32,544 nt of DNA, taken from positions 1 to 32,544 of the forward strand of contig CANDFN010000002.1 in assembly GCA_947384015.1 (NCBI GenBank), read 5' to 3'. Positions 477 to 24,517 of the stretch are shown here, piece after piece; positions within the stretch are counted from its first letter, which is position 1, and every line of letters starts with the position of its first letter. The DNA comes from an uncultured Clostridia bacterium. Its GTDB lineage: Bacteria > Bacillota > Clostridia > Christensenellales > UBA1242. The notes below the pieces were generated by a model. It saw only the letters and a list, made by a program, of their open reading frames with translations, did not search any database and was not told the origin of the DNA. Made by a program: the position numbers and the translations under genes.

Positions 477-2330
477 TTAACTTTCTTCTTTTTGTTGTAA
501 TTTTAGTAAATTTTTATGTTCCTCAATATGTTTTAATAAAATTTGCAACTGACCTTCTTTTAATCTGTTATTCATTTCAGAAAAAACAAAAGCAGAATGC
601 TCATCTATATGAACCTTGTGATCGTCTATTGGTAAAAGCCTAACTTCTTTATTTTTTAACACTTGTAAATTTTCTTCCTTAGCATGCTGAATGTTTAAGG
701 TGGATAAATCCACACTATCTTCCCACTTGCCAAAACCCAACATATCCAAACAACGTTTACGGGTAGATTTACTAAACTTGCCGTCTTCATCAAACATTAA
801 ACCTTGCCTAATAAGGTCTAACAGCATTGTTCGTTTTTGTCCAAGGCTATCACCAATATCAGACGAAGTATCAAACACCACATCATCGCTATTAATTTCA
901 TTTTGGTCCCAATAATACAATTGAACCTCTCCGCTATCGCCAGCAATTTTAAGCAACCTTGGCAAAACCGCATATTGCTTATATAAACGCAAAATATATT
1001 TTGCAACAATTTTTACTGCAAGGCGGGTAGAATCTATTGCAGTTGCCAGCCTGGTAGAATCTTGTTCTGCCAACAGCTCTAATGCCGTGCCCGACATATT
1101 AGTATATTGGGCGTAACTATCAGTCATCATATCGCTTACACCAGATACGGTTTTAAACTCTGCAAGCAAGCGTTCCTCTTCCGCATCAAAGTTAATATTT
1201 AAATTTGGATTTTGAACAATCTCTGGTATTTTACTGCCTTGCCTATAAACCAAAACCTTACCTGGACTTAGCCCTTCTATCTCTAAACTTTCAGTATCAA
1301 CACTTCCGTCTTCTACTGCAAGCACATTCATAACTGCACGGTTAAAATATTCGTGTTTACGATTACGCACAGCGTTATAAGCGCGTTGCAATGGAATTAA
1401 CCTATCTACCACGCTAACTCCAAAAAAACTTCCTGGCATATAGTTAGAAACTTGTTTAACAAAAGGGAAAGTTCTAGTCCCGTTTTCGTCATTAATATAA
1501 GGAAGCTCCCCGTCAAATAAAAGTTTATCACCAGCCACTATTGTAAGCCTACCGTTTTTATATTCTTTGGTTGGACGAATGTAGCGTTCTATTACAACAC
1601 AATGATTACAAAGTTCCACATTCGCAACTTTATTAATATGCGCATTATATCCAAGTCCACCAAGATTTCCTATGTTACTATCAAGCGTAAAAGCATTAAT
1701 ATTTTCTTTTTCTATAGTTTTACCCCAAACGCGTTTAACTTCGTCAACCTCCATGGCCCGCGCTTGAATTAGCGATTTTACATCTTCCATTCTTTCACAA
1801 GAAAGATTGTCTGGAAAGATTTCAAAAGGTGAAACAACTTGCACTTCCACATCACCTTCATATATGCTTGAACCTTCATTGTCTTGTGCAACCATTTTGC
1901 CGCTGTCTGTGTTCCAAACCACCTTATAAAAACATGTGCCACAAATTTCACTCCATGTGGTTGCAGTTTTTTCTATATCTGTTAAATTTAATCGGTTTGT
2001 TACAGATTCTAAAATATCTTTACTTAGTTTTGCACTTTCAACATCTTCTTCATCCGTGCTGGCTGGAACAACGGTAATGTTAGGCATGTTTTGTGCTATT
2101 TTTGCAATACGTGTTTCTACAATTGGTGCAATATGATTAAACACCTCTTTTTCTTGCCAAAAATATTGCTTTTCGTCCTCGCGTATTGCTCCATTTTGTG
2201 CAATGTAACTATACTGGTTACCCAACATAAAATTAATATTCATCTGCCACTGATTTTCTAAGCTTAATCTAGCATTGCGTCTAGCTAAATAATCTTGTTT
2301 AATCTCTTCTACTAAATTATTAATTTTCAT
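477..2330 (-). CDS. Phage portal protein (putative)
   Basis: 617-aa ORF lying downstream of the large terminase in the same operon. GGGGGG SD. ATGA start/stop overlap with the preceding small gene. Size and position are typical of portals; no diagnostic motif recognised by eye. Confidence 0.55.
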   Translation of the reverse strand: MKINNLVEEIKQDYLARRNARLSLENQWQMNINFMLGNQYSYIAQNGAIREDEKQYFWQEKEVFNHIAPIVETRIAKIAQNMPNITVVPASTDEEDVESAKLSKDILESVTNRLNLTDIEKTATTWSEICGTCFYKVVWNTDSGKMVAQDNEGSSIYEGDVEVQVVSPFEIFPDNLSCERMEDVKSLIQARAMEVDEVKRVWGKTIEKENINAFTLDSNIGNLGGLGYNAHINKVANVELCNHCVVIERYIRPTKEYKNGRLTIVAGDKLLFDGELPYINDENGTRTFPFVKQVSNYMPGSFFGVSVVDRLIPLQRAYNAVRNRKHEYFNRAVMNVLAVEDGSVDTESLEIEGLSPGKVLVYRQGSKIPEIVQNPNLNINFDAEEERLLAEFKTVSGVSDMMTDSYAQYTNMSGTALELLAEQDSTRLATAIDSTRLAVKIVAKYILRLYKQYAVLPRLLKIAGDSGEVQLYYWDQNEINSDDVVFDTSSDIGDSLGQKRTMLLDLIRQGLMFDEDGKFSKSTRKRCLDMLGFGKWEDSVDLSTLNIQHAKEENLQVLKNKEVRLLPIDDHKVHIDEHSAFVFSEMNNRLKEGQLQILLKHIEEHKNLLKLQQKEES

Positions 2331-2536
2331 TCTTTTCCCCCCTTCTTATAGATTGGTTTTATACTTTTAGGAACAATAAATTTAGAAATTTCACCATAAA
2401 GCATACTTATACAGTTAGAGCACAAGTATATGTTACCATCAAAAACAAAACGTTTGTTAATAATTACATAATCGCATTTATTATTACAACCGCTTGCATC
2501 GCATTTTACTTTTTTTGTTGCTTTTTCAACTATCAT
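2327..2536 (-). CDS. Small Cys4 (zinc-ribbon-like) phage protein, hypothetical
   Basis: 69 aa with CDASGC...CSNC cysteine pairs. AGGAGG SD. Overlaps both neighbours, suggesting translational coupling. Confidence 0.4.
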   Translation of the reverse strand: MIVEKATKKVKCDASGCNNKCDYVIINKRFVFDGNIYLCSNCISMLYGEISKFIVPKSIKPIYKKGGKE

Positions 2537-2741
2537 CGCCTTCCTCCTTTAATTGCGTTAATAATTTTTGCTTTTCTTGCTTTAACTGTTCATCTGTTAA
2601 AGCCTCGTAATTTTCCTCTTTTTGTTGCTGATTATATATAAGTTTTATAATATCTGTATTTGGTGGGATTGTGTTCTTTTTTACTTTTTGCTTTACAAGT
2701 TTCATCTTACCTGTTTCTTCGTCTAACACATATTCGCACAC
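2526..2741 (-). CDS. Small charged (Lys/Glu/Gln-rich) phage protein, hypothetical; start uncertain
   Basis: 71-aa ORF from a GTG start. The frame stays open for about 44 more codons upstream, and a strong SD+ATG lies one frame off (see findings). Confidence 0.4.
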   Translation of the reverse strand: MCEYVLDEETGKMKLVKQKVKKNTIPPNTDIIKLIYNQQQKEENYEALTDEQLKQEKQKLLTQLKEEGDDS

Positions 2742-2847
2742 TTCTTCTTTTGTAACAATGCCTACTATTAGGCGTTTTATTGAATTTATTGTATTTTCAT
2801 CAAAATCATTTGGGCATACTCTCTCCTTCCTTTTTATTAAGTTTAAT

Positions 2848-4275
2848 TTAGCGCTTAAACCTAAGTGCTCGTATTAATCTTTCTTTTTCTTGTTGAACAA
2901 TGTTTGGTTTTTCTTTTTGTTTTTTATTTTCTGGGCGGGTCATAATATAATACCTAAGTTCGTCCATACTGTGGTCATCCACCTTAACCGGACTATCACC
3001 CTTCCCCCAGCGGTAACCCTTAATTTCGCGTATTAAATTTGTGCAAGTGTTAAAAATGAAAAGTTTACTTTCTCCTTTTGCATTTTTTAAAAAACTTTTT
3101 ACCCGCTGAATGCCAGTAAATACATCTTTATTTACATTTGTGTTTACCAAAATTCCGTAGTCATAAAACAAGTTACTTACACTTTTGGTTGATGCCAAAG
3201 TTGTTTGATTTGCCGCACTATCTATTAACGCCTCTATCATTCCGTTTGTATTTCTATGCCAATGCAAACTATCACTAATTCTTTTTATTTCATCGCTATG
3301 ATAAACTATATCTTTTTCTTTTTCATAATGTTCTGCCACCACATAAACATTACAGTCATAATCCACCGCATACCAGTGACAAGAAAGCGGATTTTTTAAG
3401 CCTGGATCTATAGAAAGTTTATCTTGCCAATCGTAAGGAATATCAAAAGGTTCTATCACATGCACATTTTCATCAAACTCCGGGTAAACTCTACCACCAA
3501 AATCTAAGAACTCGCCATGTTCTCTTGTTTTTAATTCGTCAGCCGATAAACTTACCTTCATTTGTTCTTTTGCTTGTTTACTTATATAAGGATTATCATC
3601 CCAAGAAATAAACTCACACCAGACATTAGGGTCATTAAATTTATTTAAATAAATTTCGTCATACACAAAGGTCATACCTTTCAGCGGGGTCATCGTTCCA
3701 AAAATATCTCCATAATTATCTAGCACCCTCATACGACATTCTTTATAGATTTCTTCTGGTGGCTCTTCGTCAAACCAAACGTAATCTAAACTTGTTCCTT
3801 GAAATTTTTCTCTGCCCTGATCACAACTTTTAAAGCCAATTTTACTAACTGTGCCAAACACATTTTTTATAAGGATATAATCTATTACCCCATTTACATA
3901 ATTATCTTTTCTGCCAGACAACATAACCACATCTACAATCCAATCTGGGTTTAGATAATATAAAATTTTTTGCTGGGCAACGTCGCGCTGAACTTGAGTG
4001 GACAAACTAACCACCCAGCCATTTGTTGCGCCCGTTATTTCTCGGTAAGGATGATTTCCTCGTGCAAAAAATATAGCCTCAACCGCACCACATTCTGTTT
4101 TCCCTGTTCTGTTGCCTCCAAAAACCCAGCGGTTTTTCTTTTGAGATTTATGAAATGCTAATTGCTTTTTATGTTTTACCTTCCCCGCGTTGTATGCAAA
4201 AAGGCGGTTTTTGCTTTTTCTTGTTAAAAGCACCGCCTCTATTTGTTTTATTTTTTTTAATACATCCATTTGCAA
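2848..4275 (-). CDS. terL: Phage terminase large subunit
   Basis: Walker A-like GGNRTGKT and Walker B-like VWFDEEP, with a C-terminal nuclease-sized half; 475 aa, upstream of the portal-sized gene. Start is either TTG 4275 or ATG 4269; no clear SD for either. Confidence 0.8.
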   Translation of the reverse strand: MQMDVLKKIKQIEAVLLTRKSKNRLFAYNAGKVKHKKQLAFHKSQKKNRWVFGGNRTGKTECGAVEAIFFARGNHPYREITGATNGWVVSLSTQVQRDVAQQKILYYLNPDWIVDVVMLSGRKDNYVNGVIDYILIKNVFGTVSKIGFKSCDQGREKFQGTSLDYVWFDEEPPEEIYKECRMRVLDNYGDIFGTMTPLKGMTFVYDEIYLNKFNDPNVWCEFISWDDNPYISKQAKEQMKVSLSADELKTREHGEFLDFGGRVYPEFDENVHVIEPFDIPYDWQDKLSIDPGLKNPLSCHWYAVDYDCNVYVVAEHYEKEKDIVYHSDEIKRISDSLHWHRNTNGMIEALIDSAANQTTLASTKSVSNLFYDYGILVNTNVNKDVFTGIQRVKSFLKNAKGESKLFIFNTCTNLIREIKGYRWGKGDSPVKVDDHSMDELRYYIMTRPENKKQKEKPNIVQQEKERLIRALRFKR

Positions 4276-8072: not shown

Positions 8073-9551
8073 TTAAAGTAGTATGCAAAGCAATCCACCC
8101 TTACCTTCATTTACAATACGAGAAAGAGTCTTGCGCAATTTCTTTTGTAAATTTTCTGGCATTGCAGTTAATTTGTTATTTAAGCCGTCTCGCACCAAAC
8201 TTTCTAAAGACTTACCAAACATATTGGTTTGCCAAATACCTTGTGGATTATTTTCAAATTGTTGTTGCAAGTAATTGGCAAGTTCTTCGCTTTGCTCGTA
8301 ACCACCCATAATTGGGCGAACTTCAGTTTCTACATCCACTTTCATAATGTGTAAGCTTGGAGCTTGCGCTTTAAGCCTAACTCCACACTGTCCGCCTTGA
8401 TGCACAATTTCTGGTTCTTTAAGCTCCATTTCATCTACACTTGGAACTACTATTCCATACCCAGTTTCATTAACTTGTTTTAAGGCAAGGCTTATTTTAT
8501 CGTATTCTTTCTTTGCTTCGGTTAAACCTTTAAGAGAGGATATAAGTTCGTAATCGTCGCAAATTTCTGTGCCACATTGTTCACTTAATACTTTATAAAA
8601 CAAACCTTCTTTAGGTTGCACCTCAAAAGAAACTGCACCACTGCCAAGTTCTATTGTATTAGAAAGGATAGGTTCGTAATTTTCACTTTCTTCAAATAGC
8701 ACACGATTTTTATCAAAATCTCCAACACGCGCCACATCATCAATTGCCCCGTTTACTGCATCCAAAATTTCTTTTACGGTTGCATTATCAGCAGGCAATG
8801 GTTTTAACCACCTTGGCATTTTTATGTTTATAACTTCTAATGGGAACTGCTTTAAAATTTCACTCATAATAATATCTACATCATCCTTTTTTAATTCATT
8901 AACATTTATTGGTAGCACAGGCGAGCCATATTCTTTGTTTAATTCTCTAACTAAAGCCAAAGTATCTTTATCCCCTGGCTTGCTTGTATTTAATATAGTT
9001 ATAAAAGGTTTGTTGGCGTCTTTAAGTTGTCTAATTGTTCGTTTTTCCGCCTCCACATAACTCGCACGCGGAATCTCGGTAAAGCTTCCGTCTGTTGTTA
9101 CTGCTATTGCTATTGTAGAATGTTCGTTAATCACCTTTTCTGTGCCAATAACTGCCGCTTGCACAAAAGGCATAGATTGCTCGCTCCACGGTGTTTTTAC
9201 AAGGCGAGGTTTATCGTTGTCCATTGCTCCAACAGCACCATCCACCATAAAACCAACGCAATCTATAAGCCTAACCGACATATTTGCATTGCCAACCTTA
9301 ATTTTTACTGCCTCGTTTGGCACAAACTGCGGTTTTGTAGTCATTACCATTGTGCCCTCACTTGCTTGAGGTAATTCATCGTTAGCACGCTCGCGATCAT
9401 GCTTGTTTGTAATATTATCTAACACAAAATTTTGTATAAACTTTTGTATAAAAGTAGATTTACCACAACGCACTGGCCCTACCACACCTATATAAACATC
9501 TCCGTTTGTGCGTCGGGCGATATCTGCATAGATGTTTGAATATTTTTCCAT
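8073..9551 (-). CDS. spoIVA: Stage IV sporulation protein A (spore coat morphogenetic ATPase)
   Basis: 492 aa. N-terminus MEKYSNIYADIARRTNGDVYIGVVGPVRCGKSTFI (Walker A) and the characteristic C-terminus GKGGLLCILL. GGAGG SD. Confidence 0.93.
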   Translation of the reverse strand: MEKYSNIYADIARRTNGDVYIGVVGPVRCGKSTFIQKFIQNFVLDNITNKHDRERANDELPQASEGTMVMTTKPQFVPNEAVKIKVGNANMSVRLIDCVGFMVDGAVGAMDNDKPRLVKTPWSEQSMPFVQAAVIGTEKVINEHSTIAIAVTTDGSFTEIPRASYVEAEKRTIRQLKDANKPFITILNTSKPGDKDTLALVRELNKEYGSPVLPINVNELKKDDVDIIMSEILKQFPLEVINIKMPRWLKPLPADNATVKEILDAVNGAIDDVARVGDFDKNRVLFEESENYEPILSNTIELGSGAVSFEVQPKEGLFYKVLSEQCGTEICDDYELISSLKGLTEAKKEYDKISLALKQVNETGYGIVVPSVDEMELKEPEIVHQGGQCGVRLKAQAPSLHIMKVDVETEVRPIMGGYEQSEELANYLQQQFENNPQGIWQTNMFGKSLESLVRDGLNNKLTAMPENLQKKLRKTLSRIVNEGKGGLLCILL

Positions 9552-10556: not shown

Positions 10557-11942
10557 TTAACCAATAATAGAGCCAACAGTGCGTGGGAATATTTCTACGT
10601 CACGGATGTTGCTTACACCTGTTAGATACATAATTAAACGTTCAAAACCTAAGCCATAACCAGAGTGAACATTTGTGCCGTAACGACGGGTGTCTAAATA
10701 CCAAGCATAATCCTTTTCGCTTAAACCAAGTTCTTGCATACGGGCAGTTAACTTGTCTAACCTTTCTTCACGTTGGCTACCACCAATAAGTTCTCCAATG
10801 CCTGGCACAAGCAAGTCTGCCGCCGCAACCGTTTTGCCATCATCGTTTTGACGCATATAAAAGGCTTTTATGTCTTTAGGGTAATTCTTTAAGAAAACTG
10901 GTTTACCATAAACTTCTTCTGTAATATAGCGTTCATGTTCACTTTGAAGGTCTACACCCCATTTTACTGGGAAGGTAAATCTATCTTTAACTTTTTCTAG
11001 TAACTTAATAGCTTCGGTATAATCTAGGCGAACAAAATCGTTTTCTACAATATTGGTTAAGCGTGCAATTAAGCCAGTGTCTACAAACTTATTTAAAAAT
11101 TCTAATTCATCTTTGCATTCTGTCATCACATAACGAATAACATATTTTATCATTTCTTCTTCATTATCCATAAGTTCATCTAAATCACAAAAACAAATTT
11201 CTGGTTCCATCATCCAAAACTCTGCAGCATGCCTGCTGGTGTTAGAATTTTCCGCCCTAAAGGTTGGTCCAAAGGTATAAGTTTTGCCAAAAGCATGGGT
11301 TAAGCATTCTTCGTGCAACTGACCACTAACGGTCAATGCAACCTTTTTACCAAAGAAATCTTTATCGTAATCCACCTTGCCAGATTTTGCCATGCGTTCC
11401 AAATCTAGCGTTGTTACTTGGAACATCTCGCCAGCACCTTCGCAATCGTTAGATGTAATAATTGGGGTGTGGACATAAACAAAGTTACGTTCGTTAAAAA
11501 ACTTATGAATTGCAAAAGCCGCCACCGAACGGATTCTAAACACTGCATTAAACAAATTGCCTCTGGCACGGATTGTTGGTATTGTGCGCAAAAATTCTAC
11601 TGTATGGCGCTTTTTTTGAAGCGGATAATCGGTATCACACTCTCCCAACACTTCTATTGTTTCAGCATTAATTTCAAATGGTTGTTGCGCTTGTGGGGTT
11701 AAAATTAGTTTACCGCTAACACAAAAAGACGCACCAACATTTTGTTTTATAACTTCGTCATAATTTTTTAATTTGCCTTTTTCTACAACTATTTGCACGC
11801 TTTTAAAAGCACCATCGTTAAGCTCTACAAAGGCGATGTTTTTACTATCACGAACCGTTCTTGCCCAACCACAAACAGAAATGGTTTTATCGGCATAATC
11901 TTTATAAGATTTTAACAAATCTCTAATTTCTACTCTTTTCAT
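10557..11942 (-). CDS. asnS: Asparagine--tRNA ligase
   Basis: 461 aa with FRAENSNTSRHAAEFWMMEPE, GGSQREER and GYGLGFERL (class IIb motifs specific for AsnRS). AGGAGA SD. Starts 10 nt after the aspS stop. Confidence 0.93.
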   Translation of the reverse strand: MKRVEIRDLLKSYKDYADKTISVCGWARTVRDSKNIAFVELNDGAFKSVQIVVEKGKLKNYDEVIKQNVGASFCVSGKLILTPQAQQPFEINAETIEVLGECDTDYPLQKKRHTVEFLRTIPTIRARGNLFNAVFRIRSVAAFAIHKFFNERNFVYVHTPIITSNDCEGAGEMFQVTTLDLERMAKSGKVDYDKDFFGKKVALTVSGQLHEECLTHAFGKTYTFGPTFRAENSNTSRHAAEFWMMEPEICFCDLDELMDNEEEMIKYVIRYVMTECKDELEFLNKFVDTGLIARLTNIVENDFVRLDYTEAIKLLEKVKDRFTFPVKWGVDLQSEHERYITEEVYGKPVFLKNYPKDIKAFYMRQNDDGKTVAAADLLVPGIGELIGGSQREERLDKLTARMQELGLSEKDYAWYLDTRRYGTNVHSGYGLGFERLIMYLTGVSNIRDVEIFPRTVGSIIG

Positions 11943-11952
11943 TTATTCTCCT

Positions 11953-13689
11953 TTATTCCTTAATTAATTGAATGTGAACGTCACGTAATAATTTATCGTC
12001 CACATTGTTTGGTGCGTTTGTAAGTGGGTCGCACCCATTTTTATTCATAGGGAAAGCTATAACATCCCTAATAAATTCGTTATGAGTTAATAACATCATT
12101 AACCTATCAAAGCCTGCGCCTGCACCGCAATGTGGTGGTGCACCATAAGAAAAGGCATTATAAAGCGCTGGGAATTTATTTTCTACAACAGATTTATCTA
12201 ACCCTGCTAGCGCAAATAATTCTACCATCATATTTGGATTATGATTTCTAACCCCTCCGGACAAACTTTCGTAACCATTAATAACTAAATCATACTGATA
12301 AGCTTTTGCTTTTAATGGGTCTTTTTTAACCTCTTCAATGCTTGCCTGTGGCATACTAAATGGATTATGGCTAAATGCAATATTACCGTCATCATCAAGT
12401 TCATAGAATGGGAAATCTACAATCCAAACAAAGTTATATGCACTGTTATCTATTAAGTTTAGACGTTTGCCCAACTCGTTACGCAAAACATCTGCATACT
12501 TAATTACTTTTGCCTTTTCATCAGCCACAAAGAAAATTGTATCTCCTGCTTTGTATTTTAGCATATTGCTTAGTGCTTGCTTTTGCTCTGGTGTAATAAA
12601 CTTTGTTATACCAGTTTCAAATTCACCTTCTTCTGTAACGTGCACATAGGCAAGACCTTTTGCCTCGCGTGATTTTAAAAACTCTGTTAAACTATCGTAA
12701 AACTTGCGTCCTAAACCACCGCAATTTACTTTTATTGCTTTAATTACATTACCATTAAAAGCATTAAAGGTTGTATTTTTAAACACATCAGTTACATCTG
12801 CCACAGTTAGCGGATTTCGCAAGTCTGGTTTATCACTACAATAATTTTTTATTGCATCTTCATAAGTCATTCTAGCAAATGGTGTTACAGGACGTTTGCC
12901 AGCAAAACGTTCAAATATGCTTGCATAAAGTTCTTCTATAACTTTAAATACTTCCTCTTGTGTTGCAAATGCCATTTCCATATCTATTTGATAGAATTCT
13001 GTAGGTGACCTATCCGCCCTTGCATCTTCATCTCTAAAACATGGTGCTATTTGAAAATATTTATCTACACCACTTGTCATTAATAACTGTTTAAATTGTT
13101 GTGGTGCTTGTGGCAAAGCATAGAACTTGCCTGGATTTAGCCTAGACGGAACTAAAAAATCTCTTGCACCTTCTGGGCTTGATGCAGTAAGAATTGGGGT
13201 TTGCACCTCTAAAAAGCCTAAATTGTGCATAAAGTTACGCACATGCAACATTAAGTCACTACGCAATTTTAACATCTCTTTATTATAATCGGCACGCAAA
13301 TCTAGATAACGATATTTTAAACGTAAATCTTCATTTACATCTTGGCTAGATTTTATTTCAAAAGGCAAAGCCTGTTCGCACTTACCTAATATTTTTATTT
13401 CTTCCGCCACTAACTCTATATCTCCGGTTGGCATATTAGGGTTTTTACTGCTACGCTCCCTAACCACACCTTTAATAGACACAACATCCTCTTTATTTAA
13501 CTCACATATGCAATCTTCTGGTAAAATTACTTGTGTTTTGCCATAATAATCGCGCAAAACTAAAAAGGTAATACCTCCTAGTTTACGTATTGTGTCTACA
13601 AAACCTGCTAAGGTTTCTGTTTTGCCAGCATCAACTAAACGCAAACTTCCACAATCTGTTGACCTATAAACATTTTTTAAAATATTCAT
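11953..13689 (-). CDS. aspS: Aspartate--tRNA ligase (bacterial type with insertion domain)
   Basis: 578 aa with LRLKYRYLDLR, FYALPQAPQQFKQLLM, FRDEDARADRSPTEFYQIDMEMAF and GAGAGFDRL. AGGAGG SD. Confidence 0.93.
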   Translation of the reverse strand: MNILKNVYRSTDCGSLRLVDAGKTETLAGFVDTIRKLGGITFLVLRDYYGKTQVILPEDCICELNKEDVVSIKGVVRERSSKNPNMPTGDIELVAEEIKILGKCEQALPFEIKSSQDVNEDLRLKYRYLDLRADYNKEMLKLRSDLMLHVRNFMHNLGFLEVQTPILTASSPEGARDFLVPSRLNPGKFYALPQAPQQFKQLLMTSGVDKYFQIAPCFRDEDARADRSPTEFYQIDMEMAFATQEEVFKVIEELYASIFERFAGKRPVTPFARMTYEDAIKNYCSDKPDLRNPLTVADVTDVFKNTTFNAFNGNVIKAIKVNCGGLGRKFYDSLTEFLKSREAKGLAYVHVTEEGEFETGITKFITPEQKQALSNMLKYKAGDTIFFVADEKAKVIKYADVLRNELGKRLNLIDNSAYNFVWIVDFPFYELDDDGNIAFSHNPFSMPQASIEEVKKDPLKAKAYQYDLVINGYESLSGGVRNHNPNMMVELFALAGLDKSVVENKFPALYNAFSYGAPPHCGAGAGFDRLMMLLTHNEFIRDVIAFPMNKNGCDPLTNAPNNVDDKLLRDVHIQLIKE

Positions 13690-13711: not shown

Positions 13712-14253
13712 AAAAAACGCCCTAAATTACTTTAGGACGAATAATTAAATCCGCGGTGCCACCTAAATTCTCGTCGTGCCATGCCATTAAACTAAATTGC
13801 TTCACTAGCGTTACGCAATTGTAAGTCTTTAGGCAGGCACTCCTCTTCCCCTTCCGCAAGCCAGTTGCGGTGGGGTCCCCATTTTTTGGGGTCTCCCTTT
13901 GAAGTTCTTTGCCATGCCATTAAACTAAATTGCTTCACTAGCGTTACGCAATTGTAAGTCTTTAGGCAGGCACTCCTCTTCCCCTTCCGCAAGCCAGTTG
14001 CGGTGGGGTCCCCATTTTTTGGGGTCTCCCTTTGAAGTTCTTTGCCATGCCATTAAACTAAATTGCTTAGTTTATTAGTGCAACTTTATCAGTTTAATTT
14101 ATAGCCAACAAGCCACTTTATTATACCCTTATTGGAGGGCCACCATAAAACTCCGGAGTGTTCTTCATTAAGGCTGTATTAATAAGTTCTCACTATCCTT
14201 ATCTCACTTTAAACCATTTCCTTAACTACTCTTTCCTTCAACGTTTTAAAAAC
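13712..14253 (-). promoter_or_regulatory. T-box riboswitch leader of aspS-asnS (specifier AAC = Asn, overlapping GAA)
   Basis: Minus strand shows a glyQS-like Stem I (CGTTGAAGGAAAGAGTAGTTAAGG...GGATAGTGAGAAC...CCTTAATGAAGAACACTCCGGAG). The specifier AAC sits at plus 14160-14162 and is followed by A. T-box core AATTTAGGTGGCACCGCGG = plus 13751-13769. Terminator CGTCCTAAA-gtaa-TTTAGGGCG+T6 = plus 13712-13739. The TTTAGG of the T-box can pair with the CCTAAA of the terminator arm (antiterminator). Confidence 0.8.
13777..14068. repeat. Perfect tandem direct repeat, 133-bp unit x 2.2, inside the T-box leader
   Basis: 13778-13910 and 13911-14043 are identical base for base. The first 25 nt (GCCATGCCATTAAACTAAATTGCTT) recur a third time at 14044-14068. 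Confidence 0.95.
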
Positions 14254-18430: not shown

Positions 18431-19096
18431 ATGAATTATGTTTTAGCAAAAGACTGGAGCGAAGCATTAGCAAACCGCTTTGAACAAGATTATAAACGAA
18501 ATCTATTTAATTGGCTAGAAAGTGAATATAACGCAAAGCCAGTTTTTCCGCCAAAGGAAAAAATATTTAATGCACTAAACCTTGTGCCAATAAAACAAGC
18601 CAAGGTTGTAATTATTGGGCAAGACCCCTACCATGTGCGCGGGCAAGCGGACGGCTTGGCATTTAGTTGCCATAATGGAACACCTCAGCCCTCTTTAACA
18701 AATATCTTTAAAGAAATTAATGCCGATTTGGGCGTTACTATGTCTGGCTCTACCGATTTAACCCCATGGGCAAAACAAGGTGTGGTTTTGCTAAACACAA
18801 GCCTTACAGTAATAGAACATCAACCAGCTAGCCATGCCACACCTGCTTGGAAAACTTTTACCAATGAAATAGTTAAGATTTTAAACGAACAAAACCAGCC
18901 TCTTGTATTTATGCTTTGGGGCAACCATGCAAAAAGTTTTTTACCTTTCTTAAACAACCCAAATCATTTAATATTAACATCTGCTCACCCAAGCCCATTT
19001 TCTGCTTACAACGGATTTTTTGGTTGCAAGCATTTTAGCAAATGCAATCAGTTTTTAACAGAGCATGGTTTAGAACCTATTAATTGGCAAATTTAA
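18431..19096 (+). CDS. ung: Uracil-DNA glycosylase (family 1)
   Basis: GQDPYH, VLLLNTSLTV and HPSPFSA motifs. ATG 18431 chosen because the track TTG extension encodes nonsense hydrophobic sequence. ATG lies 6 nt after TGtTATAAT, with no SD. Confidence 0.9.
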   Translation: MNYVLAKDWSEALANRFEQDYKRNLFNWLESEYNAKPVFPPKEKIFNALNLVPIKQAKVVIIGQDPYHVRGQADGLAFSCHNGTPQPSLTNIFKEINADLGVTMSGSTDLTPWAKQGVVLLNTSLTVIEHQPASHATPAWKTFTNEIVKILNEQNQPLVFMLWGNHAKSFLPFLNNPNHLILTSAHPSPFSAYNGFFGCKHFSKCNQFLTEHGLEPINWQI

Positions 19097-19103
19097 GTGA
19101 GAT

Positions 19104-19680
19104 ATGAAAGATAAACTTATAAAATTAAAAGATGAAGAAATATTAACACACTATTTAAACTATGTAAAATTAGATTTTCCAAAAAAACGAAACACAATCC
19201 GCTAAAAGTATTGGTAAATACATAGATTTAAATATTGCTTTAATGCATTTATATAAGGTAGACTCAGATATTGTCGGCTGGGCATTTTTGACAGTGGACA
19301 AAAAATGTAAACTTGCCTTTCTACAATATTTAGCGATATTTAAAACATTTAGAAACAAAGGTTATGGTGGCGAATTTTTATTAAATTTAAAAAATAAACT
19401 TAAAAATTATAACGGAATATTTTTAGATTGCGAAGCAGTTGAAATCAACAACCCCGTGCAAGAAAAAAGACAACAATTTTACAGCAACAATGGCTTTATT
19501 AAAAGTGACTTGGAAACCATTTGTTGGGATGTCCATTATAATTATTTTTATATTCCAATTAAAAATAACAATATAAAAAGTGATGATTTGTTTGATAGTT
19601 TAACTGAAACTTTTTTAATTAAACACAACAAAAAATATTTAGAAGAAAATTTTAAAAGGATTAATAATGATAAAAATTAG
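19104..19680 (+). pseudogene. GNAT N-acetyltransferase interrupted by a frameshift in an A7 run
   Basis: ATG 19104 opens MKDKLIKLKDEEILTHYLNYVKLDFPKK..., which stops at 19203-05. The GNAT body (track ORF 19243..19680, motif A FRNKGYGGEFL) is open from 19174 in the next frame. The frames overlap across AAAAAAA at 19181-19187. Removing one A gives a continuous protein of about 191 aa (..DFPKNETQSAKSIGKY..). Confidence 0.6.
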
Positions 19681-20122
19681 AAAAGCCACTTTACAAGACA
19701 CTCTAGCCATTCAACTTTTAAACAATCAGCTTTGCAATTTAGAAAGAGAAAAGTTTGATAAATACCTAATAAAAGATTATGCAACATCTAAGGAAGGCGA
19801 AGAATATTTTAAAAACTCTATAAAAAATGACTATGTTATTGTTGCAGAAGAAAATAAAAAAGTAGTTGGATATCTTTTGGGCGCAAGAAACGATGTTGTT
19901 TATTATAATTTTAAAATAGCGGAGTTGTGCAACATGTGTATAGATGAGGCATATAGACATCACGGCATTGGCACACTACTTTACAAAGAGTTTGAAAAAC
20001 ATTTTAATAGTTTGGGTATAACCCACTTTACAGTTACAGCATCTTTTAAGAATGAAAGTGCAAAGGCTTTTTATAAAAAAATGGGGTTTGAAGAAATTAA
20101 TACAACCTTTATTAAAGAATAA
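19667..20122 (+). CDS. GNAT family N-acetyltransferase
   Basis: 151 aa with motif A RHHGIGTLLYKEFEKH. AGGA SD. 14-nt overlap with the preceding GNAT. Confidence 0.8.
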   Translation: MIKIRKATLQDTLAIQLLNNQLCNLEREKFDKYLIKDYATSKEGEEYFKNSIKNDYVIVAEENKKVVGYLLGARNDVVYYNFKIAELCNMCIDEAYRHHGIGTLLYKEFEKHFNSLGITHFTVTASFKNESAKAFYKKMGFEEINTTFIKE

Positions 20123-20140
20123 AAAAATTATTTCATTTAA

Positions 20141-20169
20141 TTGACAAAAGCATTTGTGAATGATAAAAT
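20141..20169 (+). promoter_or_regulatory. Sigma-A promoter of the ileS leader
   Basis: TTGACA (20141-46), 17 nt, then TGaTAAAAT (extended -10; hexamer at 20164-69). Confidence 0.65.
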
Positions 20170-20175
20170 AGAAAT

Positions 20176-20220
20176 ATGTATAAAGCAATTATAGCAAGCA
20201 GCATTATTATTAACATCTAA
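20176..20220 (+). CDS. Putative Ile-rich leader peptide (MYKAIIASSIIINI)
   Basis: ATG 6 nt after the -10 hexamer. 14 codons, 6 of them Ile (ATT ATA .. ATT ATT ATT AAC ATC), then TAA. Lies directly upstream of alternative antiterminator/terminator helices and ileS. Confidence 0.55.
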   Translation: MYKAIIASSIIINI

Positions 20221-20256
20221 TTAATTAGGTGTGCGATTTGCTGTAATAATAAAAAA

Positions 20257-20281
20257 TGTCAGCAAAACGCTGGCATTTTTT
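20257..20281 (+). terminator. Leader (attenuator) terminator upstream of ileS
   Basis: TGTCAGC (20257-63), loop AAAAC, GCTGGCA (20269-75), then T6 (20276-81). It ends 5 nt before the ileS SD. Confidence 0.6.
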
Positions 20282-20299
20282 AAAAAGAGAGGTATTAAA

Positions 20300-23200
20300 G
20301 TGAAAAAAGAAAACAGCAACTTAAACTATGTAGAAATGGAAAAGCAGATGCTTAATTTTTGGCAGAATAACGACATCTTTGAAAAGTTAAAAGCCAAAAA
20401 TAAAAAGACTGGCAAATATTTTGCCACCCTAGACGGCCCTATTACTGCAAATTATAACATGGGGCTACACCATGCCTATAACCGCACCTTTAAAGATGCG
20501 ATGTTTAAGTTTGAAGCACTTTGCGGTTACGATCAACATTATCAAAATGGTTTTGACTCTCATGGTTTGCCTGTAGAAAAAAAGGTTGAAGAAGCATTAG
20601 GCTTAGACAGCAAACAAGATATTGAAAAATATGGCATAGATAAGTTTGTTAAAGCTTGTATGGATTCTGTAGACAAATATTCTGCATCTCAAACACAATC
20701 TTCTATTCGTTTAGGTCAGTGGATGAATTGGGACGATAGTTACTACACAAACAGCGATAGCAACATCACTGCAATTTGGTATTTTTTGAAGAAATGCCAT
20801 GAAAAAGGCTGGATTCAACAATCTTACCGCCCAACTCCATGGTGCACTCGTTGCGGAACAAGCATAGCAGAAAACGACATGTCTGGAGATGACGTTTATC
20901 GCAACGATACCTGCCAAGCAATTTTCTTCAAATGCCCAATTAAAGATAGCAATAACGATATTCTAGTTTGGACAACCACCCCTTGGACGTTATGTGCAAA
21001 TGTGGCAGTTGCTGTTAATCCAGATTTTGATTACAATATTGTAAAAATAAAATCTTCTAATCGTAACCTAATTGTTATGGCAAGTCTTATGAAAGTGCTT
21101 AAAGACGACGCTTGCGAAGTTTTAAAAACAGTTAAAGGAAGTGAACTTGTAGGTCTTAGTTACGAAACTTGTTTCCCAGAACTTAGCGAACAACAATTTG
21201 TTCATAAAATTGTCGCATGGGATTTGGTTGATGCAACCGAAGGTGCAGGTGCCGTCCACATCGCCCCTGGTTGCGGTGAAAGTGACTACGATTTAGGCAA
21301 AAGCCTAGGATTAAAAAATGTTGTGCCTATTGACGAAGCTGGTTTATTTTACCCAAGCTTTGGAGTTTTAGCTGGCAAAGATGCCAACAATGACGAAACT
21401 CGCGATTTTATTTTTGACGAATTAAGCAAACGAGGCAAGGTTTATTACACACACAAATACACTCACCGTTACCCACACTGCCACAGATGTAAACGCCCTA
21501 TTGTTTACAGACTAATCAGCCAATGGGTAATTAAAATGGATGAAATTCGCCCTAGCCTAATTACAGCTATAGACGATGTAGAATTTAACCCAGATTTTAT
21601 GAAAAAACGTATGTTAGACTGGCTTAACAATATGGGAGATTGGTCTATTAGCCGTAACAGATATTATGGGTTGCCTTTGCCATTTTACCCTTGTAAAAAC
21701 TGTGGAGAAGTAACAGTTGTTGGTAGTTTAGACGAATTAAAAAGTCTTTCTTCCAGTGCCGAAGTAGATTCAATGCCGCACATCCACCGCCCATATATAG
21801 ACAAAATTAAAATCAACTGCCCAAAATGTGGTAGTAAAGTAGAGCGAATTAAAGAAGTTGGCGATGCTTGGCTAGATGCAGGCATTACTCCATTTAGCAC
21901 CAAAAAGTATTTTACTGACAAAGAGTTTTTTAATAAAAATTTCCCAATAGAATGTGTAATAGAAGCAAAAGAACAAGTGCGTTTGTGGTTTTATAGCCTA
22001 CTTGTCATGAGTGTTGTGCTTACTGGAAAAGCTCCTTATAAACGCATTGGGACAACCCCAATGTTATTAGATAGAGAGGGCAAAAAACTTTCTAAATCTA
22101 GCCCTAATAACATACCATTAGACACCGTGTTTGAAGAAATTGGTGCAGACATTGTGCGTTATAATTTTGTAGCCACCCCGCTTACAAATGATGTTCGTTT
22201 TAGTAGAGAAACCTGTGACGAAGTTAAACGTAAACTTTTAGGACTTTGGAATGCTTACATCTTCTTAAACACTTATGCTTGTTTTGACAATCCTGACTTA
22301 ACAAGCTACTACCCTAAAGAAAATAGCCTAGCATTTATTGATAAATGGTTAATTAACCGTGTTAACGAATTTACTGCAAATGCTAAAGATGCTTACAACA
22401 AGCAAATGTTTGGTGCAGTAAGTAAAGACTTTGAATTATTGGTTGACGAACTTACAAACTGGTATATTCGCAATAACCGCAGACGTTTTTATAAAAGCGA
22501 AAATAACGAGGACACAACTAATGCTTATTTTTGCCTAAATTACGCAATTAAAAATATATGTATGGTAATGTTTCCTATTACTCCATTCTTAAGTGAATAC
22601 TTATGGCAAAATGTAGTGCGTGAACTAGACAAAAACGCAACTGAAAGCGTTGCTCTTAATGGTTATAATATTGCAGAATACAAGGTTAAAGATTCTGGCT
22701 TTACAGAAAAAACTAATATGGTTCGCACTATATTTGCACTTGCAAGCAAACTAAGAAACGAGAATCAAATAAAAGTTAAACAGCCACTAAAAACTATGTA
22801 TATCAATGGTAACAAAACAGTAGCCGAAGCTGTTAAATTATATTACGACATAATTTCTAGCGAACTAAACATTAAGCAAGTTGTTATGGAACATGACAAC
22901 TCTAAGTTTAATGACGAATATCTAACCCTAGATTTCCGCAAGGCTGGCGCTGTGCTTAAAGGAGATGTTCAAAAGGTTAAAAATTTGTTAACCGAGGCTA
23001 GCGAAAAAGAAATGACAAGCATGGTGGCGGAATATAAAAATGGTAAAGTTAAAATTAATAACACAGAGTTAGACAGCACTTTGTTTACACTAGCAACCAA
23101 ACCAAAACAAGAATATGTTGTTGCAAGCGAGGGTGACATCACTGTTGTGCTAGACACTACCCTTGATAGAGATTTGATGTTAGAAGGTATGAGCCGTGAA

Positions 23201-23431
23201 TTAATACGTTCTGCCCAAGTGCTTAGAAAACTTGGTGGTTTTAATGTTGATGACCGCATTGACATAGAATTTGTAACAGATAGTGCAGATCTTAACGAAA
23301 TTGTAATTAAATTTGCAAATAAAATTAAAAGTGAACTTTTAGCGCGCGATATTAAACCTTTAACCAACCCAGAAGTAAACGAAGTAACCGAAATTGGTGA
23401 CGAAAAAATTACAATAAAAATGAAAAGATAG
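20300..23431 (+). CDS. ileS: Isoleucine--tRNA ligase (type 2, about 1040 aa)
   Basis: GTG 20300 follows a GAGAGG SD. N-terminal NYVEMEKQMLNFWQNNDIFEK, GPITANYNMGLHH (HIGH-region variant of this subclass), GFDSHGLPVE, WCTRCGTSI, KKLSKS (KMSKS) and C-terminal LMLEGMSRELIRSAQVLRK. The track start at 20231 would overlap the attenuator. Confidence 0.9.
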   Translation: MKKENSNLNYVEMEKQMLNFWQNNDIFEKLKAKNKKTGKYFATLDGPITANYNMGLHHAYNRTFKDAMFKFEALCGYDQHYQNGFDSHGLPVEKKVEEALGLDSKQDIEKYGIDKFVKACMDSVDKYSASQTQSSIRLGQWMNWDDSYYTNSDSNITAIWYFLKKCHEKGWIQQSYRPTPWCTRCGTSIAENDMSGDDVYRNDTCQAIFFKCPIKDSNNDILVWTTTPWTLCANVAVAVNPDFDYNIVKIKSSNRNLIVMASLMKVLKDDACEVLKTVKGSELVGLSYETCFPELSEQQFVHKIVAWDLVDATEGAGAVHIAPGCGESDYDLGKSLGLKNVVPIDEAGLFYPSFGVLAGKDANNDETRDFIFDELSKRGKVYYTHKYTHRYPHCHRCKRPIVYRLISQWVIKMDEIRPSLITAIDDVEFNPDFMKKRMLDWLNNMGDWSISRNRYYGLPLPFYPCKNCGEVTVVGSLDELKSLSSSAEVDSMPHIHRPYIDKIKINCPKCGSKVERIKEVGDAWLDAGITPFSTKKYFTDKEFFNKNFPIECVIEAKEQVRLWFYSLLVMSVVLTGKAPYKRIGTTPMLLDREGKKLSKSSPNNIPLDTVFEEIGADIVRYNFVATPLTNDVRFSRETCDEVKRKLLGLWNAYIFLNTYACFDNPDLTSYYPKENSLAFIDKWLINRVNEFTANAKDAYNKQMFGAVSKDFELLVDELTNWYIRNNRRRFYKSENNEDTTNAYFCLNYAIKNICMVMFPITPFLSEYLWQNVVRELDKNATESVALNGYNIAEYKVKDSGFTEKTNMVRTIFALASKLRNENQIKVKQPLKTMYINGNKTVAEAVKLYYDIISSELNIKQVVMEHDNSKFNDEYLTLDFRKAGAVLKGDVQKVKNLLTEASEKEMTSMVAEYKNGKVKINNTELDSTLFTLATKPKQEYVVASEGDITVVLDTTLDRDLMLEGMSRELIRSAQVLRKLGGFNVDDRIDIEFVTDSADLNEIVIKFANKIKSELLARDIKPLTNPEVNEVTEIGDEKITIKMKR

Positions 23432-23460
23432 TTTTAAATTGCTTTTTGATTACAATAAAA

Positions 23461-23493
23461 AAGCCATTGCTTTAGTTGTTGCAATGGTTTTTT
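23461..23493 (+). terminator. Bidirectional rho-independent terminator between ileS and acpS
   Basis: AAGCCATTGC (23461-70) pairs with GCAATGGTTT (23481-90). Flanked by an A-run upstream and a T-run downstream. Confidence 0.7.
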
Positions 23494-23526
23494 ATTTTTT
23501 AATTTGTTTTTTGCTTTTATTTTATC

Positions 23527-23883
23527 TTATTTTAAAAGCACAACTGCTGTAGCATAGCCTTTACAGTGAGAGATACTTATTTCTACATTAAATAAGCCAT
23601 CATCCAATTCTTTTTTTGCAATTAAATCTTTAACATATTTTGTTAAGTTTATATACGGTTTTCCAGTATCTGTATGTAGAACCTCTATTTTTTTATACTC
23701 AATTTCAGGGTTATCCAAAGCTTTAACAAATGCTTCCTTTACACAAAAATAACCACAAAGATGTTCGGCAACATTCACATACTGTTTTGCATATTCCATT
23801 TCTTTTTTTGTAAATATTCTTGAACATTCTTTATCTGTCCACGCCAAAAACCTATCTGTAACCTCTATATCTATACCTATCAT
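23527..23883 (-). CDS. acpS: Holo-[acyl-carrier-protein] synthase
   Basis: 118 aa with MIGIDIEV, FTKKEMEYA, KEAFVKAL and ISISH motifs. AGGAGA SD. Confidence 0.88.
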   Translation of the reverse strand: MIGIDIEVTDRFLAWTDKECSRIFTKKEMEYAKQYVNVAEHLCGYFCVKEAFVKALDNPEIEYKKIEVLHTDTGKPYINLTKYVKDLIAKKELDDGLFNVEISISHCKGYATAVVLLK

Positions 23884-23923
23884 GCTTTTCTCCTAAAACT
23901 ATAATAAATTCAATTACACAAAC

Positions 23924-24517
23924 CTAAACCTCGTATATGTTTTTCATGGCCTGTTTTATAGTGTCCCAACCATAGCCTTGTCCAATTAAACGACGAGTTA
24001 ATTTTTCTACATTTGGTTTATCTACTGGTTTAGATTTAAAAAACTTTTCAACCTCTTTTGTGCAGGCTGGCAACTCATCAATTTCTACCAAATTTTCCTC
24101 AAAATCGTCACTTTTTATGCCAAACCCTTGCAGTTTTTGTTTTAGTTTACGTTTACTAAAATTAGGGTTAGAATTTATATAGCTTTGTGCATACAAATTG
24201 TCGTTTAATAAATTGTATTCTTTTAGCTTATTAATAACTGCATTTACAATTTTAGATTTATATTCCTTTTTATACAAATAATCTTTAACTTGTTTTTCTG
24301 TCTTCATGTGTTGATTAATATAATTAAGTGCAGTATTTGTGGCAATTAAAAGTGCACTTTCTTCCTCCGCCTGCTTAAATCTTTCTGTATCAACCTCGCC
24401 TACACGCAAACCAAATTTAACAATAATATCACTATGAAAAATATGCTGCCCCTCATCTGAGGTTATGATAAATATGTTTGCATTTTTACCTTTAAGTTTA
24501 ATAGACTGAATAAACAT
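23924..24517 (-). CDS. recX: RecX family regulatory protein
   Basis: 197 aa. Repeated helical modules of the type KQVKDYLYKKEYKSKIVNAVINKLKEYNLLNDNLYAQSYI are typical of Firmicutes RecX. No SD; ATG lies 6 nt after TGtTATAAT. Confidence 0.7.
   Translation of the reverse strand: MFIQSIKLKGKNANIFIITSDEGQHIFHSDIIVKFGLRVGEVDTERFKQAEEESALLIATNTALNYINQHMKTEKQVKDYLYKKEYKSKIVNAVINKLKEYNLLNDNLYAQSYINSNPNFSKRKLKQKLQGFGIKSDDFEENLVEIDELPACTKEVEKFFKSKPVDKPNVEKLTRRLIGQGYGWDTIKQAMKNIYEV

Follow-up and report, generated by a model that had tools for sequence, protein, structure and literature searches.

A candidate leaderless, isoleucine-rich leader-peptide attenuator upstream of ileS in uncultured Christensenellales

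The interval upstream of ileS and its counterparts in relatives

The isoleucyl-tRNA synthetase (IleRS) gene ileS of an uncultured Clostridia bacterium of the order Christensenellales (GenBank assembly GCA_947384015.1) is carried on a 32,544-nucleotide (nt) stretch of contig CANDFN010000002.1, which is the whole of the DNA analysed here and is referred to as the window. The short interval between a promoter and ileS holds an isoleucine (Ile)-rich open reading frame (ORF), an intrinsic terminator and an alternative antiterminator pairing, which together form a candidate leader-peptide attenuator (Table 1). The product of ileS is a type-2 (MupA/MupB-like) isoleucine-tRNA ligase that matches TIGR00392 (ileS) at 731.6 bits, well above the cutoff of 621.4, and contains the Pfam domains tRNA-synt_1, Anticodon_1 and DUF5915. 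A first-pass annotation, made from the DNA letters, had placed a near-consensus promoter, an ATG, a 14-codon Ile-rich ORF, a terminator and an antiterminator in this interval, and on re-reading positions 19900-20500 all of them were found where it had put them. The promoter, matching the consensus at 11 of 12 positions and carrying the TG extension, is the best of the 5.5 kb scanned (19000-24500). The ATG at 20176 is the seventh base past the -10 element, i.e., six nucleotides lie between, and it opens the codon series ATG TAT AAA GCA ATT ATA GCA AGC AGC ATT ATT ATT AAC ATC TAA.

Table 1. Coordinates of the elements at the ileS locus, in window positions.
Feature	Position	Strand	Remarks
-35 element, TTGACA	20141-46	+	promoter; followed by a 17-nt spacer
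extended -10 element, TGaTAAAAT	20161-69	+	promoter element (whole promoter 20141..20169)
putative leader-peptide ORF	20176-20220	+	MYKAIIASSIIINI and stop codon TAA; 6 Ile in 14 codons
Ile codons of the leader ORF	20188-93, 20203-11, 20215-17	+	
region 1, 5' strand of the anti-antiterminator	20187..20204	+	inside the ORF, between and over the Ile runs; partner 20232-20247
P1 hairpin, at the tip of the 1:2 stem	20213..20232	+	ACATCTAA (20213-20) with TTAGGTGT (20225-32); includes the stop codon
region 2	20233..20247	+	20233-43 is GCGATTTGCTG, 5' strand of the antiterminator; 20237-47 is also a partner of region 1
region 3, 3' strand of the antiterminator	20260..20270	+	CAGCAAAACGC; pairs with region 2 at 10 of 11 positions
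intrinsic terminator	20250..20282	+	TGTCAGC (20257-63) with GCTGGCA (20269-75), loop AAAAC, T6 (20276-81)
ileS	20287..23431	+	Shine-Dalgarno GAGAGG (20287-92), GTG start at 20300, 1043 amino acids

Three strands of this leader compete for partners. The bases of region 2 are shared by its pairings with region 1 and with region 3, so that the two pairings are mutually exclusive, and region 3 in turn overlaps the terminator, reaching from the last 4 nt of its 5' arm across the loop into the first 2 nt of its 3' arm. The terminator stem can be extended by pairing of A6 (20251-56) with the T-run. A simple terminator scan reports the hairpin on the minus strand only, although folding of the leader yields a 14-bp hairpin; we think that the plus-strand call is missed because A6 pairs with the T-run and absorbs the tail. 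The T-run ends only 18 nt before the ileS start, which leaves no space for a further promoter.

Counterparts were sought by an IleRS protein scan over one genome per GTDB species, which returned 79 loci at 50-83% IleRS identity, nearly all of them from metagenome-assembled genomes (MAGs) of Christensenellales or 'Candidatus Onthoplasma'; the comparison set is formed by the window and 75 loci of the scan, the 76 at which sequence 5' of ileS is available (loci other than the window carry L numbers). The same layout is present at 47 of these 76 loci, 46 times directly upstream of ileS and once, in L057, with one gene inserted; a T-box stands at 15 loci and neither a T-box nor such a leader at 14. 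The 46 directly adjacent sequences, each from a distinct GTDB species, share a promoter, an ATG 5-11 nt past the -10, an Ile-rich ORF of 14-23 codons, an antiterminator and a terminator; the Ile-rich mini-ORF and the helices, whose conservation the first-pass annotation had proposed to test, are thus kept in relatives, as are the Ile runs and the promoter-to-ATG spacing. Of the 46, 41 have TTGACA as -35 element, 44 have a 17-nt spacer and all have a -10 that reads TAnnnT; ATG and -10 are 6 nt apart in 27. The leader ORFs end in TAG, TGA or TAA. By their peptides the leaders fall into family A (19 sequences including the window, 14-18 residues; e.g., MFKAIIIRNIIINI and MNKNAIIISNIIISSSN), family B (21 sequences, 20-23 residues; e.g., MGILSFIFAVIIISKIILPIKL) and family C (6 sequences, 15 residues, MKTINANIIINIIIA). 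When both strands of all loci were scanned blindly for the combination of promoter, ATG, short ORF and terminator, 44 matches came up; 40 are ileS leaders of this set and a 41st is the L057 leader. In L057 a family-B leader with terminator (2292-2405) lies upstream, separated from ileS by about 600 nt that include an ORF of about 200 residues, and the attenuator there would control a two-gene operon.

The distance from the end of the T-run to ileS ranges from 13 to 329 nt across the leaders. It is at most 30 nt in 18 loci including the window, and in these the essential ileS gene can be transcribed only through the terminator. In L009, a second promoter-like site, TTGAAT-16 nt-TGaTATAAT (2952-2979), follows the terminator, a site that the window lacks; it suggests a constitutive promoter beside the attenuated one in the L009 subgroup. 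Similar sites were seen by eye in L003, L004, L019, L026, L037, L042 and L064. In L008, L012 and L020, insertions of 100-330 nt with GC-rich inverted motifs (by eye; e.g., GTCATTCTGAGCG...CGCTCAGAATGAC) look like miniature repeat elements separating the terminator from ileS. Among the loci with neither T-box nor leader, L044, L048 and L051-L053 carry a promoter-like TTGCAA-N17-TAGAAT motif that overlaps a perfect hairpin with T-run (TAGAATGTGAAATGTAAATTTTACATTCTATTTTTTT) about 60 nt upstream of ileS.

Metagenome contigs were also pattern-scanned for the region-2/terminator motif in search of other regulated genes. The scan gave 35 hits, two of them genuine (L098 and L101), both before ileS; the remaining hits are chance matches or belong to an unrelated recurrent human-gut element. 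This element (...TTGCGATTTGATTTTTGCGGATTTTTGCTGTACAGGGCGCAGCTACAGCGTTCGCTGGCATTTTTTGTACAAGTGTCAAAT...), near-identical in L085, L089, L091, L093, L095, L096, L103-L106 and L108, matches the pattern by chance; it holds no mini-ORF, and a crude test of the 700 nt downstream found no IleRS-like frame.

Codon usage of the leader frame and the alternative RNA helices

The leaders were chosen partly by their Ile count, a choice of which their homology over the whole leader and the frame-specific bias are independent: Ile makes up 38.7% of leader residues, a share that falls to 2.7% and 7.3% when the leaders are read in the +1 and +2 frames and that compares with 9.3% for a background of 3867 short ORFs taken from the same DNA and 6.1% for IleRS itself. 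A content of at least 40% Ile is reached by 0.65% of the 3867 background ORFs, a background that includes the leaders themselves. Families A and C together contain 162 Ile residues versus 19 of Leu, Val and Phe combined. Runs of three or more Ile occur in 34 of the 46 leaders, and two or more runs of at least two in 38. Within groups of equal length, the minimum numbers of changes at codon positions 1, 2 and 3 are 69, 53 and 118; in the columns with an Ile consensus they are 9, 3 and 29, and 205 of the 219 codons there specify Ile (ATT, ATA or ATC). The substitution pattern is thus of the coding type, with third positions dominant. The ORFs vary in length by whole codons only, their frame and stop being tied to the junction of P1 and region 2. 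No Shine-Dalgarno sequence precedes the leader ATG in any of the 46 sequences, and none could fit in the 5-11 nt past the -10; judged from promoter geometry, which predicts the start, the peptide would be translated from a leaderless mRNA, one whose 5' end falls on the start codon or at most 5 nt ahead of it and which has no Shine-Dalgarno sequence.

The RNA structures were conserved alongside the frame. In the family A alignment, 99.0% of antiterminator cells are paired, as against 27-50% when the 3' partner is slid, and pair 20236/20267 appears as UA in 7 sequences, UG in 6, AU in 4 and GU in 1; the A-A of the window is the sole unpaired cell of that pair and the one exception in the 10-of-11 match that the first-pass annotation had reported between 20233-43 and 20260-70. 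Over families A and B (41 sequences), 86.5% of cells are paired versus 27-60% slid, four pairs have changed on both sides, and none of 500 shuffles reaches the covariation score, so the compensatory changes that the annotation had proposed to look for do occur. The antiterminator duplex has an energy of -8 to -19 kcal/mol at every locus; against dinucleotide shuffles the mean z is -2.58, with 82% of sequences below -2, and in the window the complementarity is -14.4 compared with -7.2 ± 2.0 for shuffled sequence (z = -3.55; 0 of 300 as good). The terminator stem is paired in 95.2% of cells (41 sequences) versus 19-47% slid. In families A and B the stop codon falls within a hairpin equivalent to P1, one pair of which has changed on both sides in 11 sequences (AU 8, UA 6, UG 5). 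In family C the helices (ACGCUAUAUG with CAUAUAGCGU) are unrelated in sequence to those of the other families, but architecture and Ile runs are the same.

The 125-nt leader of the window folds at -34.7 kcal/mol (z = -4.9; 0 of 200 shuffles as good), and its minimum-free-energy structure is a long imperfect hairpin followed by the 14-bp terminator hairpin. The long hairpin is made of 20188-98/20237-47, 20201-02/20233-34 and, at the tip, P1 with the stop codon. For the 1:2 stem, the register given in the first-pass annotation (20193-202 with 20233-42) is not the best one; the best consists of the 11-bp pairing 20188-98/20237-47 and the two pairs 20201-02/20233-34. Because the register of this helix differs between subgroups, it was judged by per-sequence duplex energies against shuffles in place of MAFFT columns: the window duplex has -15.5 kcal/mol (z = -2.0), and over 45 sequences the mean z is -1.24, with 91% below 0.

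The same data bear on the idea that the ORF is incidental and that the leader works untranslated, as an RNA switch thrown by a ligand, by a protein or, like a miniature T-box, by tRNA-Ile binding to it directly. An ATG without a Shine-Dalgarno sequence, the very strong conservation of region 2 (GCGTTTTGCTG) and the fact that ileS is tRNA-sensed through T-boxes in relatives would all fit such a switch; yet the ATG falls 5-11 nt past the -10 in 46 of 46 sequences, the Ile bias is confined to one frame, substitutions fall on third positions, lengths change by whole codons around a fixed frame and stop, and the conservation of region 2 is accounted for by its two pairing partners. Rfam searches speak in the same sense. 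No family reaches its gathering score in the window, and a permissive scan of 20050-20400 (E up to 10) gives no T-box hit, although the same procedure picks up T-boxes in 15 relatives and before aspS in the window; the first-pass statement that ileS lacks a T-box here holds at this locus. A T-box leader (RF00230) was rejected on structure as well, the leader of about 106 nt having no Stem I with specifier loop, no core AAUUAGGGUGGUACCGCG with UGGN bulge and no model match. The best local Rfam match is the Thr operon leader (RF00506) at 28.3 bits (E = 0.0018), which, being below the gathering score of 55, denotes architectural resemblance only and not membership. On this evidence an untranslated switch is very improbable.

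Folding models and the proposed attenuation mechanism

Representative full leaders from each of the three families fold into the 1:2 stem plus terminator, with P1 at the tip in A and B. When the ORF is left out (20221-20272 alone), the antiterminator forms at -13.3 kcal/mol and takes 70% of the ensemble; with the ORF included (20176-20272), the 1:2 stem comes back. Ribosome masking was run on nascent-transcript prefixes, since the equilibrium fold of the full leader is uninformative, the terminator winning, and pairing of the terminator 5' arm is a poor measure of the switch, the antiterminator spanning arm, loop and arm. For the nascent window transcript to 20272 without a ribosome, the probability of the 1:2 stem is 0.63 and that of the antiterminator 0.33; with a masking ribosome whose A site is at any of codons 2-14, the antiterminator probability is at least 0.9. 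The folding comparison suggested by the first-pass annotation therefore comes out as a switch, with 1:2 stem and terminator in the full leader and antiterminator when the ORF is removed or masked. In most relatives the region-1 core AGCAA lies between two Ile runs (IIISNIII). In subgroups with 1-3 nt between stop codon and region 2, the antiterminator probability drops from about 0.8-0.9 to 0.2-0.4 when a ribosome sits at the stop, which in the model is a trp-like occlusion by the terminating ribosome. The sequence elements, their conservation and covariation, the codon bias and the thermodynamic switch are established by these comparisons.

We infer from them where transcription starts, that the ORF is translated, that ribosomes stall in it and that ileS responds to Ile. 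Transcription would start on the ATG at 20176 or no more than a few bases away from it, and a ribosome would load on the 5'-terminal AUG without a leader. When no ribosome is present, or when one has finished and gone, region 1 would pair with region 2 in a stem nucleated by the P1 hairpin at its tip; region 3 would be left free, the terminator would form, and transcription would end 18 nt before ileS. When charged tRNA-Ile is scarce, the ribosome would stall at the Ile codons on and around region 1; with region 1 covered, region 2 would pair with region 3, the terminator would be blocked and RNA polymerase would continue into ileS. We consider it probable that the element is such a ribosome-mediated transcription attenuator, tuning ileS to the supply of charged tRNA-Ile; the comparative evidence backs the 1:2, 2:3, 3:4 attenuator layout that the first-pass annotation had proposed.

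Ribosome arrest at any of codons 2-14 favours the antiterminator in the masking model, and stalling leaders without amino-acid specificity exist, e.g., the erm leaders (PMC2965389), so a translated and switching leader might report general translation stress, such as that caused by antibiotics, rather than tRNA-Ile charging. Such a stress sensor would, however, leave without reason the extreme Ile enrichment kept through synonymous changes in three peptide families, the choice of an Ile-specific synthetase as the regulated gene, and the fact that the element stands in for a T-box with an AUC specifier; we regard it as quite unlikely.

Several observations weigh against an Ile-sensing attenuator in the form just described. 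Lacking a Shine-Dalgarno sequence, the ORF would need leaderless initiation, for which we found no documentation in this lineage. The first Ile run pairs in part with region 2, so a constraint at the RNA level acts there too. The antiterminator of the window contains the A-A mismatch, the per-sequence support for the 1:2 helix is modest, and the MAFFT columns of that helix reach no more than 58% pairing, owing to the shift of its register from one subgroup to another. The stop codon of the window lies 12 nt before region 2, the same distance that the first-pass annotation had given, and the modelled antiterminator probability there is 0.96, 0.18 and 0.01 for a ribosome reaching +12, +15 and +18 nt 3' of the A-site codon; occlusion of region 2 in the window subgroup needs a reach of about +15 nt or more and is borderline in the model. 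After complete translation, termination in this subgroup may instead depend on the ribosome letting go and on the hairpin, nucleated by P1, quickly zipping up again. In about eight relatives with a second promoter-like site, the attenuator is, as far as such sites indicate promoters, not the sole route to ileS. Finally, the organisms are uncultured MAGs, and the putative attenuator is read from their sequence.

T-boxes, stand-alone ORFs and known attenuators

In 15 relatives a T-box occupies the same position, immediately upstream of ileS, with scores of 34-89 bits and E-values of 7e-4 to 5e-18 (e.g., L054 2730-2903 and L022 2129-2339). All 15 lie below the Rfam gathering score of 93 and were found by E-value thresholds only; standard Rfam annotation and pipelines would miss these divergent ileS T-boxes and the leader element alike. 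Each of the 15 has UAUCAC at the specifier position, i.e., AUC (Ile) followed by the conserved purine. In a neighbour-joining tree of IleRS, which is a gene tree and a rough guide only, T-boxes occupy deep branches, families A and B are interleaved in a crown clade with the T-box locus L022 inside, and family C is sister to a T-box clade; L070, whose T-box leader is close to that of L022, is off the tree for want of enough ileS on its contig. Such interleaving points to recombination or to exchange that happened more than once, and not to a tidy line of descent. An independent origin of family C was considered and is not established, since its region 1/2b (GCAAA...GUUUGC) resembles that of families A and B.

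Apparently leaderless hydrophobic ORFs of a related kind also stand alone near ileS. These ORFs, which end in LPIKL/F (20-22 residues, 2-4 Ile, ATG 6 nt past the -10; e.g., MSMFSFVLVILIIGFSFLPIKL and MTVYQFVLLIVMLGWMFLPIKF) lie upstream of the attenuator promoter in L001 (~2739-2808), L002 and L049, and divergently from the T-box ileS, preceding another gene, in L022 (2017, minus strand) and L070 (832, minus strand). Over promoter plus ORF they are 62-70% DNA-identical to family-B leaders (z of 7-10 against shuffles), an identity that is partly shared promoter consensus. Possibly these ORFs constitute a small-protein family that has escaped annotation and from which family B descended. A similar hydrophobic ORF stands alone in L031 (6454, plus strand); with it included, the peptides span 19-22 residues.

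These ORFs raise the question of whether the Ile-rich leader is itself a small hydrophobic-peptide gene with its own terminator, with ileS expressed by leaky read-through or from another promoter and no sensing of Ile at all. That five loci carry leaderless hydrophobic ORFs of 20-22 residues by ileS, that these resemble family-B leaders in DNA, and that some loci have a promoter-like site past the terminator would be expected of such a gene. The stand-alone copies, however, hold only 2-4 Ile, whereas family-B leaders average 7 and families A and C are almost devoid of other hydrophobic residues; at 14-18 residues the latter two are also unlike membrane peptides, and neither the leader peptides nor the 22-residue peptides match Pfam or NCBIfam. 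A unit of gene plus terminator has no use for an antiterminator that is conserved, covaries and overlaps the terminator, and the 18 loci with a T-run close to ileS have no space for another promoter. A separate small-protein gene is therefore highly improbable as an account of the leader, and an attenuator that senses Ile is the reading we retain.

If so, control of ileS in one genus-level gut clade of Christensenellales may have switched repeatedly between a T-box and a leaderless Ile leader, with at least two helix designs (A/B and C), family B having been co-opted from an LPIKL small gene and then enriched in Ile; we put this history forward tentatively, as a possibility rather than the expected outcome. 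Elsewhere in the window (13730-14250, minus strand), a T-box precedes aspS (11953-13689, minus strand) and a second class-II aminoacyl-tRNA synthetase (aaRS) gene (10557-11942, minus strand), which suggests that the genome has not lost T-box regulation. Its Stem I scores 52.5 bits (E = 1.5e-10), its core is the canonical GGTGGCACCGCG and its specifier looks like AAC; between Stem I and core the leader is interrupted by 2.2 perfect tandem copies (100% matches) of a 133-nt unit at 13777-14068. At the left end of the window (477-4275, minus strand), genes for a P22-like portal protein (477-2330) and a terminase large subunit (2848-4275) probably mark a prophage or its remnant, and SpoIVA at 8073-9551 indicates a spore-former.

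The aaRS genes of Firmicutes are textbook T-box territory, and in E. coli pheST, as predicted for the element described here, the gene under leader-peptide control encodes an aaRS. The ileS leader is built like that of pheST (pheM leader peptide) and like the classical attenuators of trp, his, leu, thr, ilvGMEDA and ilvBN (Rfam families such as Thr_leader RF00506 and Phe_leader RF01859): cognate codons abound in a short ORF, the 1:2, 2:3 and 3:4 helices exclude one another, and an intrinsic terminator lies just ahead of the regulated gene. It departs from those proteobacterial systems, whose peptides start from a Shine-Dalgarno sequence, in having its ATG at the predicted transcription start, in its gene, ileS, and in its lineage, Clostridia (Christensenellales). 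With the AUC-specifier T-box (RF00230), the usual control of ileS in Firmicutes, it shares the gene, the genomic position, the terminator/antiterminator output and, as predicted, the tRNA-Ile charging signal; a T-box, in contrast, binds tRNA directly without translation and is about 200 nt or longer, with Stem I, specifier loop and core. Seliverstov et al. (2005) described the aaRS genes of Firmicutes as T-box regulated, 'none by classical attenuation' (PMC1262725). The first-pass annotation knew of no leader-peptide attenuator for ileS, and our literature search found none either, an earlier prediction still being possible; for the aaRS family as a whole there is a precedent, since Naville and Gautheret (2010) predicted His leader peptides upstream of the hisS paralogues hisZ and hisS* in bacilli (PMC2965389). 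Those are likewise 'regular' leader peptides replacing a T-box at a Firmicutes aaRS-family gene, with another amino acid, gene and lineage, and ileS is unmentioned there. The leaderless polycysteine short ORFs of mycobacteria (Canestrari et al. 2020, bioRxiv 10.1101/834739), which act on translation, resemble the predicted ileS leader in using a run of one codon in a leaderless short ORF to sense one amino acid by ribosome stalling and so control downstream genes; they differ in belonging to Actinobacteria and in their biosynthetic targets, the ileS leader having an intrinsic terminator as output and an aaRS as target. The Leu-rich attenuator peptide of the Staphylococcus aureus ilv operon (Kaiser et al. 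2018, PMC5794164) is also a branched-chain amino-acid leader-peptide attenuator in a Firmicute and, so far as that source describes it, senses Leu and controls biosynthesis genes. The class of mechanism is thus classical; what is new is the gene, the lineage, the apparent leaderless start and the clear exchange with an Ile T-box among close relatives.

Taken together, the locus shows what appears to be a natural and recent replacement of an Ile T-box by a ribosome-mediated attenuator at the same gene, and the T-box-bearing sister species make this exchange between two sensors of one signal directly testable. At about 106 nt the leader is a compact part that is predicted to respond to Ile, and the fixed -10-to-ATG spacing predicts leaderless translation in a Clostridia lineage. 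Should the tentative history of repeated switching and co-option prove true, leaderless initiation would be in routine use in this lineage, and the clade would document how a small-protein gene can turn into an attenuator that senses an amino acid.

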